Shown here: piece after piece, positions 1 through 49,628 of the stretch | Position numbering within the stretch: position 1 is the first letter of the stretch | How the letters are laid out: every line of letters starts with the position of its first letter | From: Escherichia phage JMPW1 | Direction: 5' to 3' (one strand) | DNA length: 49,628 nucleotides | Sequence record: NC_041874.1 | Position numbers and translations under genes: made by a program | The notes under the pieces: model-generated | The model's input: the letters and a program-made list of their open reading frames with translations, nothing else | Databases searched by the model: none | Told to the model about the DNA's origin: nothing

Positions 1-60
1 ATTGCATGGTTTGCAACAGTTGGTTGATTTGTTGCTTAGATTGCAATGATTGTGAGAGGG
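1..60. repeat. GATTGCA/TTTGCAA repeat tract (continues at 49590-49628 if the ends are joined)
   Basis: attgcatgg, tttgcaac, gattgcaatgattg at the left end; ctgattgcgattgattgcaaatgatg at the right end. Confidence 0.55.
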
Positions 61-105
61 GGGGATCTAGTGTTGCCCGGTTCGCCTGGTAGTCATCTCC
101 ATTTT

Positions 106-120
106 TAGCAAAAAGTGCTA
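106..120. promoter_or_regulatory. palindrome TAGCAaaaagTGCTA (operator-like, no -10 at the usual distance)
   Basis: Perfect 5+5 inverted repeat. Flanks match the consensus ATAGCACTTTTTGCTAAAA on the minus strand. Lies in the large divergent control region. Confidence 0.5.
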
Positions 121-524: not shown

Positions 525-1040
525 ATGAGCAATACCAATCAGGAATTAAAAATCACCGATATGATTCGACTAACCTGCGATGCAATGTATCGCGACAAAG
601 GCATGAATGAGTTCTCTTTCGTGGCTGATGATATGGCCCTCGAGGCCGCGCGATTCTACTTCCGTGACCAGGAGGTAAGTGATAGCGATCTTGAATCTGC
701 CGCTGCCGGATGGGTGGACCAGAACCAGGGTGAGGTGGAGAAGCGATTCAAGTCTGCTTTCATTACGCCAATCATTACCCGGCACTTTTGCAAGTATGGC
801 AAGGTGGCAAAGGTGAAGGTAGGCCGGAATGACGCTGCAATCACAATGATAACGGTTATCGTTACCGACGAAGAGATTCCCGTGAAGAAGCGCCGCAGTC
901 GGAAGAAAGTTAGCCTGGCCGATTGCCTGGATTCGTTTGTGGTTGATGTGGGTAAACTGGCTGATAGCGAATTGATGACTCGTGACGTAAACGAGATCGT
1001 TCGCCAGATGAAGGCGCATATCGAAAAGTGTGGACTGTAA
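525..1040 (+). CDS. hypothetical early protein (171 aa)
   Basis: ATG 7 nt after AAAGAGGA SD; first ORF after control region A; no recognisable motif. Confidence 0.6.
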   Translation: MSNTNQELKITDMIRLTCDAMYRDKGMNEFSFVADDMALEAARFYFRDQEVSDSDLESAAAGWVDQNQGEVEKRFKSAFITPIITRHFCKYGKVAKVKVGRNDAAITMITVIVTDEEIPVKKRRSRKKVSLADCLDSFVVDVGKLADSELMTRDVNEIVRQMKAHIEKCGL

Positions 1041-5722: not shown

Positions 5723-6169
5723 ATGAAACACTTAATTTGCATTGAAACGCCTAACGACCAGTACACCCTGCACGGCATTGGAATGTTCAAAGGTCACTAC
5801 ATGACAGCAAGTATTCATGATTCGCGTTGCGTCAATGGCGATCTGATGATTACGTCAAAAGAAGTAACTCCGTACATTATGCAGAATCTTGGCAATAACG
5901 AATATATGGCCTACGGATGCAATGCGGTGTACAAGCATATCAAGATCAGAAAACGCGTTGTTCGCGCATTCAAGAAAATTGCAATGAAACAATGGAAGAT
6001 GAGCAAGAAAGATGCTGGACGCTGGGCGCGTAACGTTGCAGATTCATACTTCTACCGTAACGGTGAGTCCTGCCACTTCCTTATCGATGAACTTATGGAA
6101 AACTACGGCGGCGACTTCAGTCAGGGTGGCTTTGACGCTTGGGCTGACTACGAGGTCGATTACTGGTAA
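5723..6169 (+). CDS. hypothetical early protein (148 aa)
   Basis: ATG after ACGAGGAAGCACTC. The 5681 start in the ORF track overlaps the -10 hexamer TATGAT 5687-5692. Confidence 0.55.
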   Translation: MKHLICIETPNDQYTLHGIGMFKGHYMTASIHDSRCVNGDLMITSKEVTPYIMQNLGNNEYMAYGCNAVYKHIKIRKRVVRAFKKIAMKQWKMSKKDAGRWARNVADSYFYRNGESCHFLIDELMENYGGDFSQGGFDAWADYEVDYW

Positions 6170-8765: not shown

Positions 8766-8927
8766 ATGCAAAAAACTAAAGACGAATCAGTCAAAATTGA
8801 AATTAAAGTAACTCGCAACGGTGAAACCACTAGTTATAAAAAACGATTAAATCCTGGCGAGGCTGTTATTGGTCGCATTGCTGGCGTTATGATTAAGGCG
8901 CAGGAAGATGAAGCGATTCAAAGTTAA
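8766..8927 (+). CDS. possible hypothetical protein (53 aa)
   Basis: AAGAGGATTGCATA-ATG; below the ORF-track length cut-off; MQKTKDESVKIEIKVTRNGETTSYKK... Confidence 0.35.
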   Translation: MQKTKDESVKIEIKVTRNGETTSYKKRLNPGEAVIGRIAGVMIKAQEDEAIQS

Positions 8928-9093
8928 ATTAATTATTCGAAAGATGGGAATGTTTTGCCAGTCGTGCAAGCAATCTTTCGAAACTGAATTATCAGCAACC
9001 AGTCAGGATGAAGCCATCACGAAAGCAAAAAAACTTTCCGGCGCTAACCTTGACACTCACAAAATAAATATTGAATTAATCAAGGAGATTTAA
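8908..9093 (+). CDS. hypothetical protein (61 aa; start uncertain)
   Basis: ORF track; contains CQSC; overlaps 8766-8927 by 20 nt. Confidence 0.4.
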   Translation: MKRFKVKLIIRKMGMFCQSCKQSFETELSATSQDEAITKAKKLSGANLDTHKINIELIKEI

Positions 9094-9094
9094 C

Positions 9095-9322
9095 ATGACA
9101 ATTTTTTTATTGATTATCGCTGGTGTCATTATTTTTGGTGCTGGTTTGTTTGCTGGCTTCGCACTTGTGGCGGCAGCAATTGCGATGGACGCGAAGGATA
9201 AAACTGGTGTATGGCTGACCTACTCGCCTAAGAAGGATCAATGGGAAATGACTGGCGACCTTGCTCACTGCTACTCTAAAGCTCAGACCCACCCTAAAGG
9301 CATTAAACGACGATTATCGTGA
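9095..9322 (+). CDS. membrane protein (75 aa)
   Basis: GGAG SD; N-terminal TM helix IFLLIIAGVIIFGAGLFAGFALVAAAIA; followed by terminator 9331-9354. Confidence 0.5.
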   Translation: MTIFLLIIAGVIIFGAGLFAGFALVAAAIAMDAKDKTGVWLTYSPKKDQWEMTGDLAHCYSKAQTHPKGIKRRLS

Positions 9323-9365: not shown

Positions 9366-9388
9366 TGGTAAAATAGCACTAAATGTTA
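9366..9388 (+). promoter_or_regulatory. extended -10 promoter overlapped by palindrome (terS)
   Basis: TGgTAAAAT (9366-9374); its last T is the first base of TAGCActaaaTGTTA (9374-9388), 18 nt before the terS ATG. Confidence 0.45.
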
Positions 9389-9406
9389 AACAAAGAGGAT
9401 GGATTT

Positions 9407-9931
9407 ATGAGTGAACCTAAGAACGCCCCCGTAGTCCAGGGAGGTAATTTCAAAGAGCTATACAAGAAAAAGTTCGGCACTGTTCTTGCTAAAAACCGGG
9501 CAATGACGCCTGAGCAACTATTCGATCTGTCAGTTAAGTATTTCGAATGGGCTGAGGACAACGCAATCAAGGCGTCAGAATCAGCCAGCTTTCAGGGTGG
9601 CGTTTATGAATCGCTAGTTCATAAGCCGCGAGTCTTCACCTGGACCGGATACCGACTATTCATCGGTGCAAGCGAGGCAGCAATCATTAAGTGGAAGCGA
9701 GAGGAAGAATACAGTGAGGTTATGGAGTTTGTGGAATCGGTAATCAACGAGCAAAAATTCCAGCTTGCCGCCAACGGTGTTATTAATGCCTCCTTTATCG
9801 GTAAGGATCTCGGAATCGATAAGCCAGCCTCAATCAATATCGAAAACTCGTCAGCTTCCGCATCGACAGTAGTCGCCACCACTGAGGATGCAATGAAAGA
9901 GGCAGTAAATAGCATTCTTGACATGCTTTAA
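9407..9931 (+). CDS. terS: terminase small subunit
   Basis: Immediately upstream of terL; GAGGATGG SD; FEWAEDNAIK...FTWTGYRLFIG resembles T1-type small-terminase proteins (from memory). Confidence 0.7.
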   Translation: MSEPKNAPVVQGGNFKELYKKKFGTVLAKNRAMTPEQLFDLSVKYFEWAEDNAIKASESASFQGGVYESLVHKPRVFTWTGYRLFIGASEAAIIKWKREEEYSEVMEFVESVINEQKFQLAANGVINASFIGKDLGIDKPASINIENSSASASTVVATTEDAMKEAVNSILDML

Positions 9932-9970
9932 CGTTACGGGCGCGCGAGCGCCCACATGGGAGACTTAATC

Positions 9971-11539
9971 ATGATTCAATGGGAAGACCTTAACGCAACG
10001 CAGAAGTTAGCGATCAAGAAAATGAGCGAGGCCAATTTCGAAAAAATGATTCGGATCTGGTTCCAGCTTATGCAGGCGCAGCAGTTCCAGCCTAACTGGC
10101 ATCACCTTTACCTATGTCACGAAGTGGAGGAAATAATTGCAGGCCGACGCGGCAACACTATCTTTAACGTCACGCCTGGTTCCGGTAAAACTGAAGTGTT
10201 CTCAATTCACCTTCCGGTATACGCAATGCTCAAGTGTAAAAAGGTGCGAAACCTTAACGTGTCGTTTGCCGACAGCTTGGTTAAGCGTAACAGTAAGCGT
10301 GTCCGTGAGATTATCAGCAGCAACGAATTTCAAGAGCTATGGCCTTGCAAGTTCGGCACATCGAAAGACGAGGAGATGCAGGTTCTTAACGAAGATGGAA
10401 AGGTTTGGTTTGAGTTGATATCCGCAGCGGCTGGAGGTCGTATTACAGGTTCGCGTGGTGGCTACATGACGCCGGGATTCTCCGGTATGGTAATGCTCGA
10501 CGATATCGACAAGCCTGATGATATGTTCTCAAAGGTTAAGCGTGAGCGTACGCATATGCTACTGAAGAACACCATTCGCTCGCGCCGTATGCACAACGAA
10601 ACGCCAATCATCGCAATTCAGCAGCGACTACACGCACAGGATTCAACATGGTTCATGATGAATGGCGGGATGGGGATCGAGTTTGATCAAATCTCAATTC
10701 CGGCACTGGTGACTGAAGAATACGGAAAGACGCTTCCTGACTGGTTACAACCATACTTCGAGCGCGACGTTTTGTCGTCTGAGTATGTAGAATTGGATGG
10801 AGTTAAGCATTACTCATTCTGGCCCAGCAAGGAAAGCGTTCACGACCTGTTAGCTCTTCGAGAAGCGGACCAGTATACCTTTGACTCTCAGTATCAGCAG
10901 AAGCCGATCGCGCTTGGTGGCTCCGTGTTCAATTCGGAGTGGTGGACTTATTACGGCAGCAGCCTTGACGCTGATGAGCCGGATCCTGGTAAATATGATT
11001 ACCGTTTTATCACCGCTGATACCGCTCAGAAGACAGGTGAGCTAAACGACTACACAGTCTTTTGTTTATGGGGTAAGAAAAACGATAAGGTTTACTTTAT
11101 CGACGGCATTCGCGGAAAGTGGGAAGCGCCGGATATGGAGAAGCAATTTACCGCTTTCGTCAACCAAGCATGGAGGCACAATAAATCAATGGGGGTGCTT
11201 CGTAAAATCTATGTGGAAGATAAGGCGAGTGGTACGGGCTTAATCCAGAATCTAAGGAAAAAGACTCCGATATCCATCACTCCATTGCAGCGTAACAAAG
11301 ACAAAGTTACCCGAGCTATGGATGCCCAGCCAGTTATTAAAGCCGGGCGCGTGGTTCTGCCAGAAGAGCACCCCATGCTTGCGGAAATTATCGCGGAACA
11401 TAGCGCGTTCACTTACGATGACACGCATCCGCACGACGATATTGTCGATAACTTCATGGACGCTGCAAACATTGAACTACTGACAATTGACGATCCTATC
11501 GAGAGAATGAAGCGACTCGCCGGGATGGTTAAGCGGTAA
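9971..11539 (+). CDS. terL: terminase large subunit
   Basis: Walker A VTPGSGKTE, Walker B-like MVMLDDID, C-terminal RNaseH-like nuclease region (ITADTAQK...FCLWG...DD); GGGAG SD before ATG 9971. Confidence 0.9.
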   Translation: MIQWEDLNATQKLAIKKMSEANFEKMIRIWFQLMQAQQFQPNWHHLYLCHEVEEIIAGRRGNTIFNVTPGSGKTEVFSIHLPVYAMLKCKKVRNLNVSFADSLVKRNSKRVREIISSNEFQELWPCKFGTSKDEEMQVLNEDGKVWFELISAAAGGRITGSRGGYMTPGFSGMVMLDDIDKPDDMFSKVKRERTHMLLKNTIRSRRMHNETPIIAIQQRLHAQDSTWFMMNGGMGIEFDQISIPALVTEEYGKTLPDWLQPYFERDVLSSEYVELDGVKHYSFWPSKESVHDLLALREADQYTFDSQYQQKPIALGGSVFNSEWWTYYGSSLDADEPDPGKYDYRFITADTAQKTGELNDYTVFCLWGKKNDKVYFIDGIRGKWEAPDMEKQFTAFVNQAWRHNKSMGVLRKIYVEDKASGTGLIQNLRKKTPISITPLQRNKDKVTRAMDAQPVIKAGRVVLPEEHPMLAEIIAEHSAFTYDDTHPHDDIVDNFMDAANIELLTIDDPIERMKRLAGMVKR

Positions 11540-30592: not shown

Positions 30593-30599
30593 TTGTATG

Positions 30600-31116
30600 T
30601 CCTCGTCGTTAGTGTGATTGCATTGTATGTCGCATTTACTTTTATTGCAATAGCACTATTACAATTTTTTCGTGTAACAGGTGTCTATTTTTGTAACCGG
30701 AGCGGGTGTTACAAAATCCACCCCATCCGACCGCAGAGGGATATGATAAAAACTCTATATAATATATATAGATAGATAATATTTAATTTTAGCTTTATAT
30801 ATAATTATTGTTGTGTAACAGTTGTCTATTGTGTAACTGGTGATTTGATTGATTCGTCAAATTTCTATCATATATGTTCAAAATTTAATCAATATGGATT
30901 CTACTTGTAGCTATCTCTGTATTTCTAAGAAAAAGCGGTTACAAGTATTACACAGTAGACATCACATAAAAATAGACTTAAGCCATTGATTCCGTTAATG
31001 CTGGTTGTAACTTGAGCGATATAGACACGCTATTACACACCAATTACATGTATCCGATTGACTAAACGCTGTTAATGGCTATAATGGATTCATCGTAAAC
31101 GAAGGAGATAAACGCA
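30600..31116. repeat. control region B: paralog of region A
   Basis: GTGTAACAGGTGTCTAT 30672-30688; GTGTAACAGTTGTCTATTGTGTAAC 30813-30838; inverted copies 30938-30962 and 31021-31040; 17-mer at 30755-30771; GATTGCA repeats 30613-30650. Confidence 0.7.
31058..31085 (+). promoter_or_regulatory. near-consensus sigma70 promoter of recombination operon
   Basis: TTGACT (31058-31063), 16-nt spacer, TATAAT (31080-31085); 31 nt upstream of ATG 31117. Confidence 0.6.
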
Positions 31117-48568: not shown

Positions 48569-49257
48569 TTTGCGATCGCTTTGAAAAATCCACGAGGAGA
48601 TAAGGAACGTATCAGCTTCGTTTTGGCAGACTTGCCGCCCAGCTTGTTTTGCTGTGCAGAGTACCCGTCATGCAGGTTTACAGGCTTCCTTTCTGGCATG
48701 ACAAAGTCGTCCGAAGTCCAAAGACAAGTTTTCTTCGGGTAAGCATCGCGCGGCGCAATATACATCGGGAACCAGGGGTGTGCGTCATTCTCAGGAAGAT
48801 AGCCGCCATACTCCCAGGGATTGAAAGTGTGGTCAGCCTTTCGCCAGGCTGATGACAGGACGCTAACCGGATTCTCAATGATGTAAGTCACACCCAGGCT
48901 ATCACCGATGTTCGCGGCAATCCGGGCGGTGGCAACAGCTTTCTCCTGGAATAGCGGATCACGTTTACGCTTGCTGGCAAAGTGTCGAGCACCACTAACG
49001 GCCAGGTCAGTGCACGGCGGGAAGGCCATAATGAAATCCGGCTTGCCATACACACCCGCGATCGCATCACGTTCGAACGTTTCATCAATGAACACGTTCA
49101 CATACTCAATGTTGGGATGCTCTACCCGGGCATTGTACTTTGCATAATCTCCGTGATCGGCTCCGTCAAAGTTGAAGCACATCACTTTATGACCTTGCTT
49201 TGCCAGTTCATGACCAGCCAGGCCCGAGCCGTCGAATAGTGACCAGATTAATTTCAT
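48553..49257 (-). CDS. DNA (cytosine-5)-methyltransferase, compact form
   Basis: Motif I LFDGSG, motif IV FPPCTDLAVSG (PC), motif VI IIENPV. The 3' end encodes palindrome 48554-48568. Confidence 0.8.
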   Translation of the reverse strand: MKLIWSLFDGSGLAGHELAKQGHKVMCFNFDGADHGDYAKYNARVEHPNIEYVNVFIDETFERDAIAGVYGKPDFIMAFPPCTDLAVSGARHFASKRKRDPLFQEKAVATARIAANIGDSLGVTYIIENPVSVLSSAWRKADHTFNPWEYGGYLPENDAHPWFPMYIAPRDAYPKKTCLWTSDDFVMPERKPVNLHDGYSAQQNKLGGKSAKTKLIRSLSPRGFFKAIANSTFC

Positions 49258-49466
49258 TTCGTTACCTCCTGGAAAACAGTTTGTCCGCTATTGGTCAGGA
49301 AGCGCCCGATCTTATTCATTGACCGGAACACGCCGATCTGATTCTGATGATTGTCAGTCGCGAAGTAACCGCCATCAATAAGGTAGATTTCATACACTGA
49401 TTGATTCGTGAAGCTGTCAGTGCTGACGCTAACACATCGTACGGTACATTCAAATTCTGGTTCCAT
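49254..49466 (-). CDS. hypothetical protein (70 aa), first gene of leftward early operon
   Basis: AACCAATCAGAGGACTCAGGCA-ATG after cassette 49499-49542. Confidence 0.5.
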   Translation of the reverse strand: MEPEFECTVRCVSVSTDSFTNQSVYEIYLIDGGYFATDNHQNQIGVFRSMNKIGRFLTNSGQTVFQEVTK

Positions 49467-49498: not shown

Positions 49499-49542
49499 AT
49501 CATACCCTGCCGACCTGGCTGAGTCGTTAGCAAAAAATGCTA
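49499..49542 (-). promoter_or_regulatory. palindrome-promoter cassette (first of leftward operon)
   Basis: Minus strand: TAGCAtttttTGCTA, 23 nt, TATGAT (49504-49499); AACCAATCAGAGGA leader. Confidence 0.5.
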
Positions 49543-49628
49543 TTCCAATAATTGCTCATTATTCCATCAATAGCGGAATAGGTGGAATAATTCTGATTGC
49601 GATTGATTGCAAATGATGAAACGTGATT

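Follow-up and report, generated by a model that had tools for sequence, protein, structure and literature searches.

Phased TGAT(T) repeats across the record junction of the T1-like Escherichia phage JMPW1 form a candidate pac region conserved in related genera

The window analyzed here is the whole of sequence record NC_041874.1, Escherichia phage JMPW1 (49,628 nt), to which all coordinates refer, and it spans the whole of a T1-like phage genome (Tunavirus, Drexlerviridae) at unit length. The junction between the last and the first base of the record lies inside an intergenic region of ~690 bp, the largest of the genome, which separates a leftward from a rightward block of early genes. Within this region, two copies of the T1-like intergenic repeat, both directed leftward, bound a non-coding core of ~240 bp, and the features from one flanking gene to the other are the following.

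49254-49466, minus strand: last gene, left block
49528-49542, minus strand: leftward T1-like intergenic repeat, TAGCATTTTTTGCTA on the minus strand, with TATGAT 23 nt downstream
49541-49591: four TATTCC(A) boxes, direct at 49541 and 49560, inverted at 49575 (GGAATA) and 49583 (TGGAATA), adjoining the left of the tract
49594-49628, plus strand: left part of the phased tract, four TGAT(T) at exact 10-nt spacing (49594, 49604, 49614, 49624)
1-52, plus strand: right part of the tract, with TATTGCA over the junction, palindrome TTGCATGGTTTGCAA (2-16) and GATTGCAATGATTG (39-52)
53-90, plus strand: conserved GAGAGGG block, with a G7 run (58-64), GATC (64-67) and the hairpin GCCCGG-TTCG-CCTGGT (75-90)
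106-120, minus strand: second leftward T1-like repeat, which closes the core on the right and reads TAGCACTTTTTGCTA followed by AAAA on its own strand
525-1040, plus strand: first gene, right block

The join of the two record ends is biologically real, because relatives carry the region unbroken. Phage IME167 was identical to JMPW1 (100%) over 2.9-3 kb at each record end and phi2013 (MT427400.3) was identical over the last 3 kb; a 1000-nt sequence made by joining the ends matched phi2013 at 100% in a single unbroken piece, and the join was also unbroken in phiD2-2, EF3-1, Sfin-1/2/4/5/6, IME18, pSf-2 and others. The original prediction that an array of (G/T)ATTGC units continues across the joined ends was thus borne out, with both terminal strings present as written, and so was its statement that no gene is cut at either end. 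The sole open reading frame that crosses the junction encodes 37 amino acids from a TTG start; it was rejected as a hidden gene, as it is not conserved and the T1 sequence has an in-frame stop. A search of the junction core against Rfam gave no match at E values up to 1.

Base 1 of JMPW1 and base 1 of the T1 reference record are homologous positions (in the alignment, query position 402 corresponds to T1 position 2), the T1 record beginning with GTTGCATGGTGTGCAAC and the JMPW1 record with ATTGCATGGTTTGCAAC. It has been reported that T1-like assemblies are routinely rotated by their authors to the T1 reference, because headful genomes have no fixed ends (PMC13164509). Since base 1 of JMPW1 is the homolog of base 1 of T1, its linearization was inherited from the T1 record, and the split of the tract at the record ends is a database convention that says nothing about physical ends. 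The T1 reference record labels positions 1-2800 as a repeat_region, which is most simply read as the terminal redundancy. No terminal redundancy was found within the JMPW1 record, in which suffix and prefix overlap by just 3 nt. The phages of the T1-like family are known to package DNA by pac-initiated headfuls, which yields terminally redundant, partly permuted molecules (PMC11447400, PMC5238451). The earlier conclusion that the genome is T1-like and opened within its main control region holds, the opening being in the largest intergenic region, but the step from split ends to physical ends does not, since this unit-length record simply opens where T1 does.

For the 95 nt obtained by joining 49589-49628 to 1-55, with expectations taken from the genome-wide rate, four exact copies of [GT]ATTGC were counted (49595, 49605, 49628 across the junction, and 39; 0.10 expected) and eight copies with at most one mismatch (1.11 expected), so that the predicted count of at least seven units is fair if degenerate copies are allowed. 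Both counts were the genome maxima for any 95-nt window and were reached at the junction only. The heptamer KATTGCR was not enriched genome-wide (47 copies, 39.7 expected). When the region was aligned across the junction for 14 Tunavirus genomes, the ~240-bp core (49525 to about 125) was far more conserved than its flanks, and the GATTGC(A) heptamers within it were not: in most relatives, GATCCC/GATCTC or GATCAT/GATCTC (T1 included) is found in place of the units at 49595 and 49605, GAATGCA in place of the unit at 39, and AATGCAAT in place of the palindrome ATTGCAAT at 40-47. GATTGCA was accordingly dropped as the functional unit; it is lineage-specific, and what the relatives share is TGAT(T) at a 10-nt phase, accompanied by TTGCA-type elements.

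Across the 14 Tunavirus genomes, it is the TGAT columns that are kept, whereas the bases between the columns vary. The left part of the tract, which includes both left-side GATTGC units, contains the only occurrence in the genome of four TGAT separated by six nucleotides each (0.02 expected), and a chain of four TGAT was found in none of 200 shuffles. Weaker TGAT units follow at 25 and 47, giving offsets from the first TGAT of 0, 10, 20, 30, 59, and 81, and the right part has TGAT at 25-28 and 47-50 as well as TGGT at 7-10, which is TGAT in several relatives. The palindrome at 2-16 has arms TTGCA and TGCAA around a spacer TGRTK, and its arms are invariant in the 14 Tunavirus genomes; it is absent from the Badaguanvirus IME347 and from Webervirus. 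A recurrence of the tract at the edge of region B (30613-30650) had also been proposed. The copies are literally there, and are identical in T1, but they are two unphased copies with no TGAT array, and the site was rejected as a second copy of the tract.

Together with its flanks the tract forms a conserved layout, which consists of four TATTCCA boxes, then the phased tract of ~90 bp, whose TGATT/TTGCA-type repeats share one helix face, and then the G-run and the hairpin. The TATTCC-box element (~80 nt) was matched at 75-84% identity in 223 Klebsiella phage records, the sampled ones being Webervirus, and was present in 38 IMG/VR contigs by an exact-pattern scan. The boxes are invariant in most of the Tunavirus and Webervirus sequences examined and in IME347, and the 223 matched records are mostly unannotated at this element. 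The element might be bound by a protein or fold as a nested hairpin; covariation of the boxes is not possible because they do not vary. On the other side of the tract, the G7 run at 58-64 is G6 in T1 and GGGAGG in most relatives, and the hairpin at 75-90 is a perfect ACCAGG-TTCG-CCTGGT in T1. The position of this hairpin relative to the repeat at 120-106 matches that of the hairpins of other repeat modules of the genome, but its loop is of 4 nt and there is no -10-like hexamer. For the repeat copy at 106-120 itself, no -10-like hexamer was found at 22 nt and no gene lies downstream.

The same architecture was found outside Tunavirus. In the Badaguanvirus IME347, seven TGA[TC] units occur at 5, 15, 25, 35, 46, 56, and 65, and in Webervirus, six to eight units occur at 5, 15, 26, 36, 46, 56, 77, and 97. 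The Webervirus units, from Klebsiella phages and IMG/VR contigs, are TGATTGCACC, TGATTCCCTGG, TGATTAGTTT, TGACGAATCA, TGATTGCTTT, TGATTGTTTC and two more in phase. Pooling of the units gave the consensus TGATT-R-Y, with the rest of each turn free in sequence. The phased TGAT array together with the TATTCC boxes is thus common to Tunavirus, Badaguanvirus and Webervirus, with two exceptions. In Solomon-type Webervirus (L018, L038 and L049), the ~10-bp phase is kept, but TGATT alternates with AATCA (TGATTgcactcAATCAcgatcTGATTaatc...), and in contig L029 the TATTCC boxes are kept but the direct TGATT repeats are absent. At the equivalent position of more distant phages, TLS (Tempevirinae) has nine TGAT in about 65 nt, and SU57 (Braunvirinae) has TATTGTTGCA, TATTGCAATGATT, TGATTATTGCA and others. 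Since SU57 carries such units, ATTGC(A) does recur at a distance, as part of a composite TGATT/TTGCA unit.

With the repeat at 49528-49542 (TAGCAAAAARTGCTA) as a shared landmark, the positions at which related records open can be compared. The distance from the landmark to the record junction is 86 nt in T1 and JMPW1, 121 in TLS, 140 in Shfl1 and 155 in SH2, and further right 168 in SU57, 170 in IME347 and 175 in IME167 and Henu5_2, so that record ends lie 86-175 nt to the right of the landmark, in or just after the tract. In JMPW1 coordinates, the junction of Shfl1 falls at 55, that of SH2 at 70, and those of IME167 and Henu5_2 at 90, the last base of the hairpin; the ends of IME347 and SU57 are at a distance homologous to the 53-90 zone (168-175 nt from the landmark). 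Webervirus record starts were left out of this comparison; they are scattered, at 69-280 nt to the right of the element and at 53 nt to its left. A stated experimental basis for the ends is confined to TLS and SU57. Base 1 of TLS is the pac site that its authors mapped by restriction, with a HindIII figure of "5,882 bp" (PMC11447400), and a HindIII site at 5876 of the TLS record agrees with that value. The start of SU57 was placed at an end called by PhageTerm where read frequency also changed abruptly, within the equivalent untranslated region (PMC7718038). For IME167, IME347, Shfl1 and SH2, the ends may reflect choices of the authors or breaks in the assembly at the G-run or hairpin; such breaks are possible for Shfl1 and SH2 because their junctions flank the G7 run at 58-64. 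In all, the ends are spread over ~90 nt, with base 1 of T1 ~85 nt to the left of the SU57/IME cluster. Taken together, these positions suggest that physical ends in the T1-like family fall in or just to the right of the tract, and by homology the physical end of JMPW1 would lie somewhere in 1-90, perhaps near the hairpin at 75-90.

Both subunits of a headful-type terminase are encoded in JMPW1, with terS 9.4 kb from the tract.

9383-9931, plus strand: TerS, small terminase and presumed reader of the tract (PHROG 606, E 8e-61; Pfam GP3_package, PF16677)
9956-11539, plus strand: TerL, large terminase, presumed nuclease and motor (PHROG 38, E 6e-117; Pfam Terminase_6C)

JMPW1 TerS matched PDB entry 3p9a (P22 gp3, deposited with nine chains) with an E value of 1.2e-15 and is 50% identical to TLS TerS; across Tunavirus, Webervirus and TLS, the TerS proteins compared are ~50% identical with many invariant residues. 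It is already established that pac-initiated headful packaging of T1-like phages starts from the junction region. The tract had been offered earlier as either a pac/terminase array or a set of operators, and the first of these is the reading with the best support: we hold with moderate confidence, from comparative sequence evidence, that it is the pac recognition region, that it would be read by the P22-gp3-like TerS encoded 9.4 kb away, and that it would be a counterpart of P1 pac by analogy. What was observed is a phased tract that several genera share and next to which record ends cluster; from this we infer terminase binding, wrapping and the cut position in the following scheme. A ring-shaped TerS would bind concatemeric DNA at the phased repeats, with the DNA probably wrapped around it; the bound TerS would place TerL, and the first cut would be made in or just to the right of the tract, around 1-90; headfuls would then be packaged rightwards, giving terminally redundant, partly permuted molecules as for T1.

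A more specific form of this scheme is proposed only tentatively. The array would suit a ring terminase that touches a single short motif in every helical turn for ~90 bp, and it is possible, if rather doubtful, that a nonameric gp3-type TerS reads pac with one subunit per helical turn, so that about eight TGATT at a 10-10.5-bp phase (~90 bp) would make up one wrap of the ring, while polarity and the place of the first cut would depend on the TATTCCA boxes and the hairpin.

Several observations stand against the tract as pac. The homologous TerS of P22 reads a site within its own gene. PhageTerm gave no obvious termini in KanT1, a close relative (PMC13164509). In Solomon-type Webervirus, a rearranged array goes with a TerS that hardly differs from the TerS of other Webervirus, and for this reason co-variation of TerS and array is uninformative; contig L029 lacks the direct TGATT repeats, and the JMPW1 array has no significant similarity to P1 pac. 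Finally, the tract lies just upstream of a promoter-like module, and regulatory sites would therefore also be expected there.

Among described pac sites, that of P1 is the closest precedent for the JMPW1 tract, as a functional analogy and not as a sign of membership of one family. The pac site of P1 is described as having "seven hexanucleotide repeats" (PMC11260489), and in its record, from annotation and sequence, TGATCA/G hexamers are found on either side of the cut within about 160 bp. Like P1 pac, the JMPW1 tract consists of clustered short repeats that contain TGAT, and the T1 and TLS arrays even have literal TGATC units. The T1 array (CGATCATGATTGATCTCTAATGATG) scored against the P1 left hexamer set above all 300 shuffles, and the score of the TLS array against the right hexamer set was reached by one of 300, whereas the alignment of the JMPW1 array with P1 pac was not significant against shuffles. 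The likeness of the T1 and TLS arrays to P1 could have arisen by convergence on TGATC repeats or could go back to an old common origin of the site; an alignment of T1 ATCATGATTGATCTCTAATGAT with P1 pac-left ATGATCATTGATCACTCTAATGAT (L061, 4720-4765) was also noted. T1-like phages share GATC methylation with P1 (PMC11447400). In contrast to P1, with its TGATC(A/G) units, the JMPW1 units are TGATTG, TGATGA and TGATTA without TGATC, and no GATC occurs within 49594-52, the nearest being at 64-67; Dam control therefore cannot apply to the JMPW1 units. The spacing is strictly 10 nt in JMPW1 and 7-15 nt in P1 pac, the JMPW1 tract lies between genes, 9.4 kb away from those for terminase, while P1 pac is inside pacA, and no IHF site was identified in the JMPW1 tract, unlike in P1. 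Homology between TerS and PacA was rejected (BLASTP E 5.8, no similarity).

The JMPW1 tract is also like the mapped pac of T1 and TLS, which has the same intergenic region, the same flanking family repeat and a homologous TerS. In TLS, only the hexamer AGATTT was named, by its likeness to P22 pac (PMC11447400). The papers covered by our search do not mention phased repeats for T1 or TLS pac or for other T1-like phages, and among them we found neither a T1 pac sequence beyond such a P22-like hexamer nor read-based Tunavirus termini. JMPW1 also resembles P22 in headful packaging and in its gp3-homologous TerS, but in P22 the pac site is one asymmetric sequence of 22 bp (GAAGATTTATCTGAAGTCGTTA) that lies within gene 3 (PMC11447400). 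The corresponding stretch of JMPW1 terS (9697-9720) has, by eye, only a loose resemblance to P22 pac. In TLS, terS is at 8792-9316 and pac is at base 1, and thus pac is outside terS; given the weak likeness and this mapping, a P22-like pac inside terS is unlikely.

A composite arrangement is known from the pac site of SPP1 (pacL-pacC-pacR), in which boxes bound by TerS lie on the unpackaged side, the cut is adjacent to them, and conserved DNA lies on the packaged side. The layout in JMPW1 would be composite in a similar way, although the TerS family is unrelated and the box sequences differ, and SPP1 pac adjoins its terminase genes, unlike the JMPW1 tract.

The set of operators remains a live rival to pac, although we consider it unlikely. 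Here, the repeats would be sites for a phage or host regulator of the leftward early promoter, and perhaps of divergent rightward ones, bound as cooperative dimers on one face of the helix. The landmark repeat belongs to the T1-like intergenic repeat, a 21-nt family (aaATAGCACnnnTTGnTAAAA) that is found in TLS, T1, Rtp and Rogue1 and whose function is an open question (PMC11447400). The pattern TWGCA-N5-TGCWA occurs 13 times in the JMPW1 genome (0.22 expected), and copies of the repeat are located as follows.

Plus strand: 1056, 1795, 2816, 4103, 5650, 6170, 7543, 35265, 36807, 39316
Minus strand: 16097, 19859, 46472, 46988, 48104, 48568, 49542

The copy read from 49542 to 49528 is gaaTAGCATTTTTTGCTAac and fits the 21-nt repeat in sequence, in its orientation with transcription, and in its distance to a start codon, its first base preceding the leftward ATG at 49466 by 76 nt; the copy read from 120 to 106 is cgaTAGCACTTTTTGCTAaaaa. 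In most copies, a -10-like hexamer (TATAGT, TATGAT, TAGAAT, TATTAT, or CATAAT) comes exactly 22 nt after TAGCAC-N3-TTGYTA-AAA, and in most plus-strand copies the hexamer is in, or overlaps, a GC-rich hairpin, for example GGCCAtttgatatagTGGCC. This suggests that the copies are promoter modules, and the copy at 49528-49542 is likely to be the promoter module of the leftward early operon. The center of the repeat palindrome would then be near -42, as for class II activator sites.

The tract is located ~50-170 nt upstream of this leftward module, whose TATGAT is at a -10-like distance, and promoter-like sites for the rightward genes were found at 137-165 and 438-466. The palindrome at 2-16 (TTGCA-N5-TGCAA) has half-sites that are one base off the repeat core TAGCA-N5-TGCTA and shares its 5-N5-5 geometry, and many TTGC/GCAA half-site-like elements occur in the tract of both JMPW1 and SU57. 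The palindrome is without the ATAGCAC and the TAAAA tail of the 21-nt repeat, and the GATTGCA units do not match that repeat. However, the palindrome is missing from IME347 and Webervirus, and the unit that is shared across genera is TGATT, not TAGCA or TTGCA. In addition, the other ~20 repeat modules of the genome have no such tract, no regulator gene was identified, and the genome ends of TLS (mapped) and SU57 (read-based) fall in the tract region. It is also possible that the tract has a dual role, since those of pac and operator are not mutually exclusive.

A role of the tract as part of a T1-like replication origin, with phased initiator repeats beside the AT-rich stretch at ~200-380, is very unlikely. 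An AT-rich, repeat-laden region does follow directly after the tract, the location of the origin in T1-like phages is an open question (PMC11447400), and the cumulative GC skew turns at the junction. However, divergent transcription fully accounts for the turn in skew, no DnaA box lies near the junction, units of five nucleotides at a 10-nt phase are unlike the typical iterons of 18-22 nt, a similar AT-rich region at 30750-30810 belongs to a region (B, 30593-31116) that has no phased TGAT array, and it is at the tract that the genome ends cluster. Across the genome, the DnaA box TTWTNCACA had one match (32485) where 4.9 were expected from shuffles, a mild depletion. Least credible of all is a small leftward non-coding RNA encoded by the core, with incidental repeats: although the nucleotide conservation is strong without an open reading frame, the four TATTCC/GGAATA boxes can pair as nested hairpins, and a leftward repeat module lies upstream at 120-106, this module is without a -10-like hexamer, no terminator-like site was found, the Rfam search was negative as noted above, the invariance of the paired boxes leaves no covariation, and the exact 10-nt phasing with free intervening sequence is a property of DNA and not of RNA.

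Packaging by pac-initiated headfuls was demonstrated in T1 earlier than in most phages. The TGATT array across three genera, which has counterparts in the repeat-rich tracts of TLS and SU57, is a concrete target for mutation tests of packaging, and also for generalized transduction and for the engineering of T1-like phages or Klebsiella therapy phages, and it is a natural substrate on which DNA reading by ring-shaped small terminases can be studied. If one TerS subunit does read each helical turn, the array would provide the first sequence-level picture of a ring terminase recognizing an extended pac site, and the pac site of T1 would be defined and shared by at least three genera of Drexlerviridae. 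For annotators, these results are a warning that T1-like records take their ends over from the T1 reference, so that the ends of a record are no evidence of where the physical ends lie.

The long intergenic regions A (121-524) and B (30593-31116) have extremely AT-rich cores of the TATATAGATA type, which are flanked by the short repeats TGTCACA, TTGTCTA and TGTAACA. Region B is almost identical in T1, and region A has diverged, T1 having there three copies of GATTAAC and four of ATTACG. Co-varying operator sets in the two regions were considered and rejected, as the three GATTAAC copies of T1 region A are absent from T1 region B. It is possible that regions A and B are strong promoters or origin-like.
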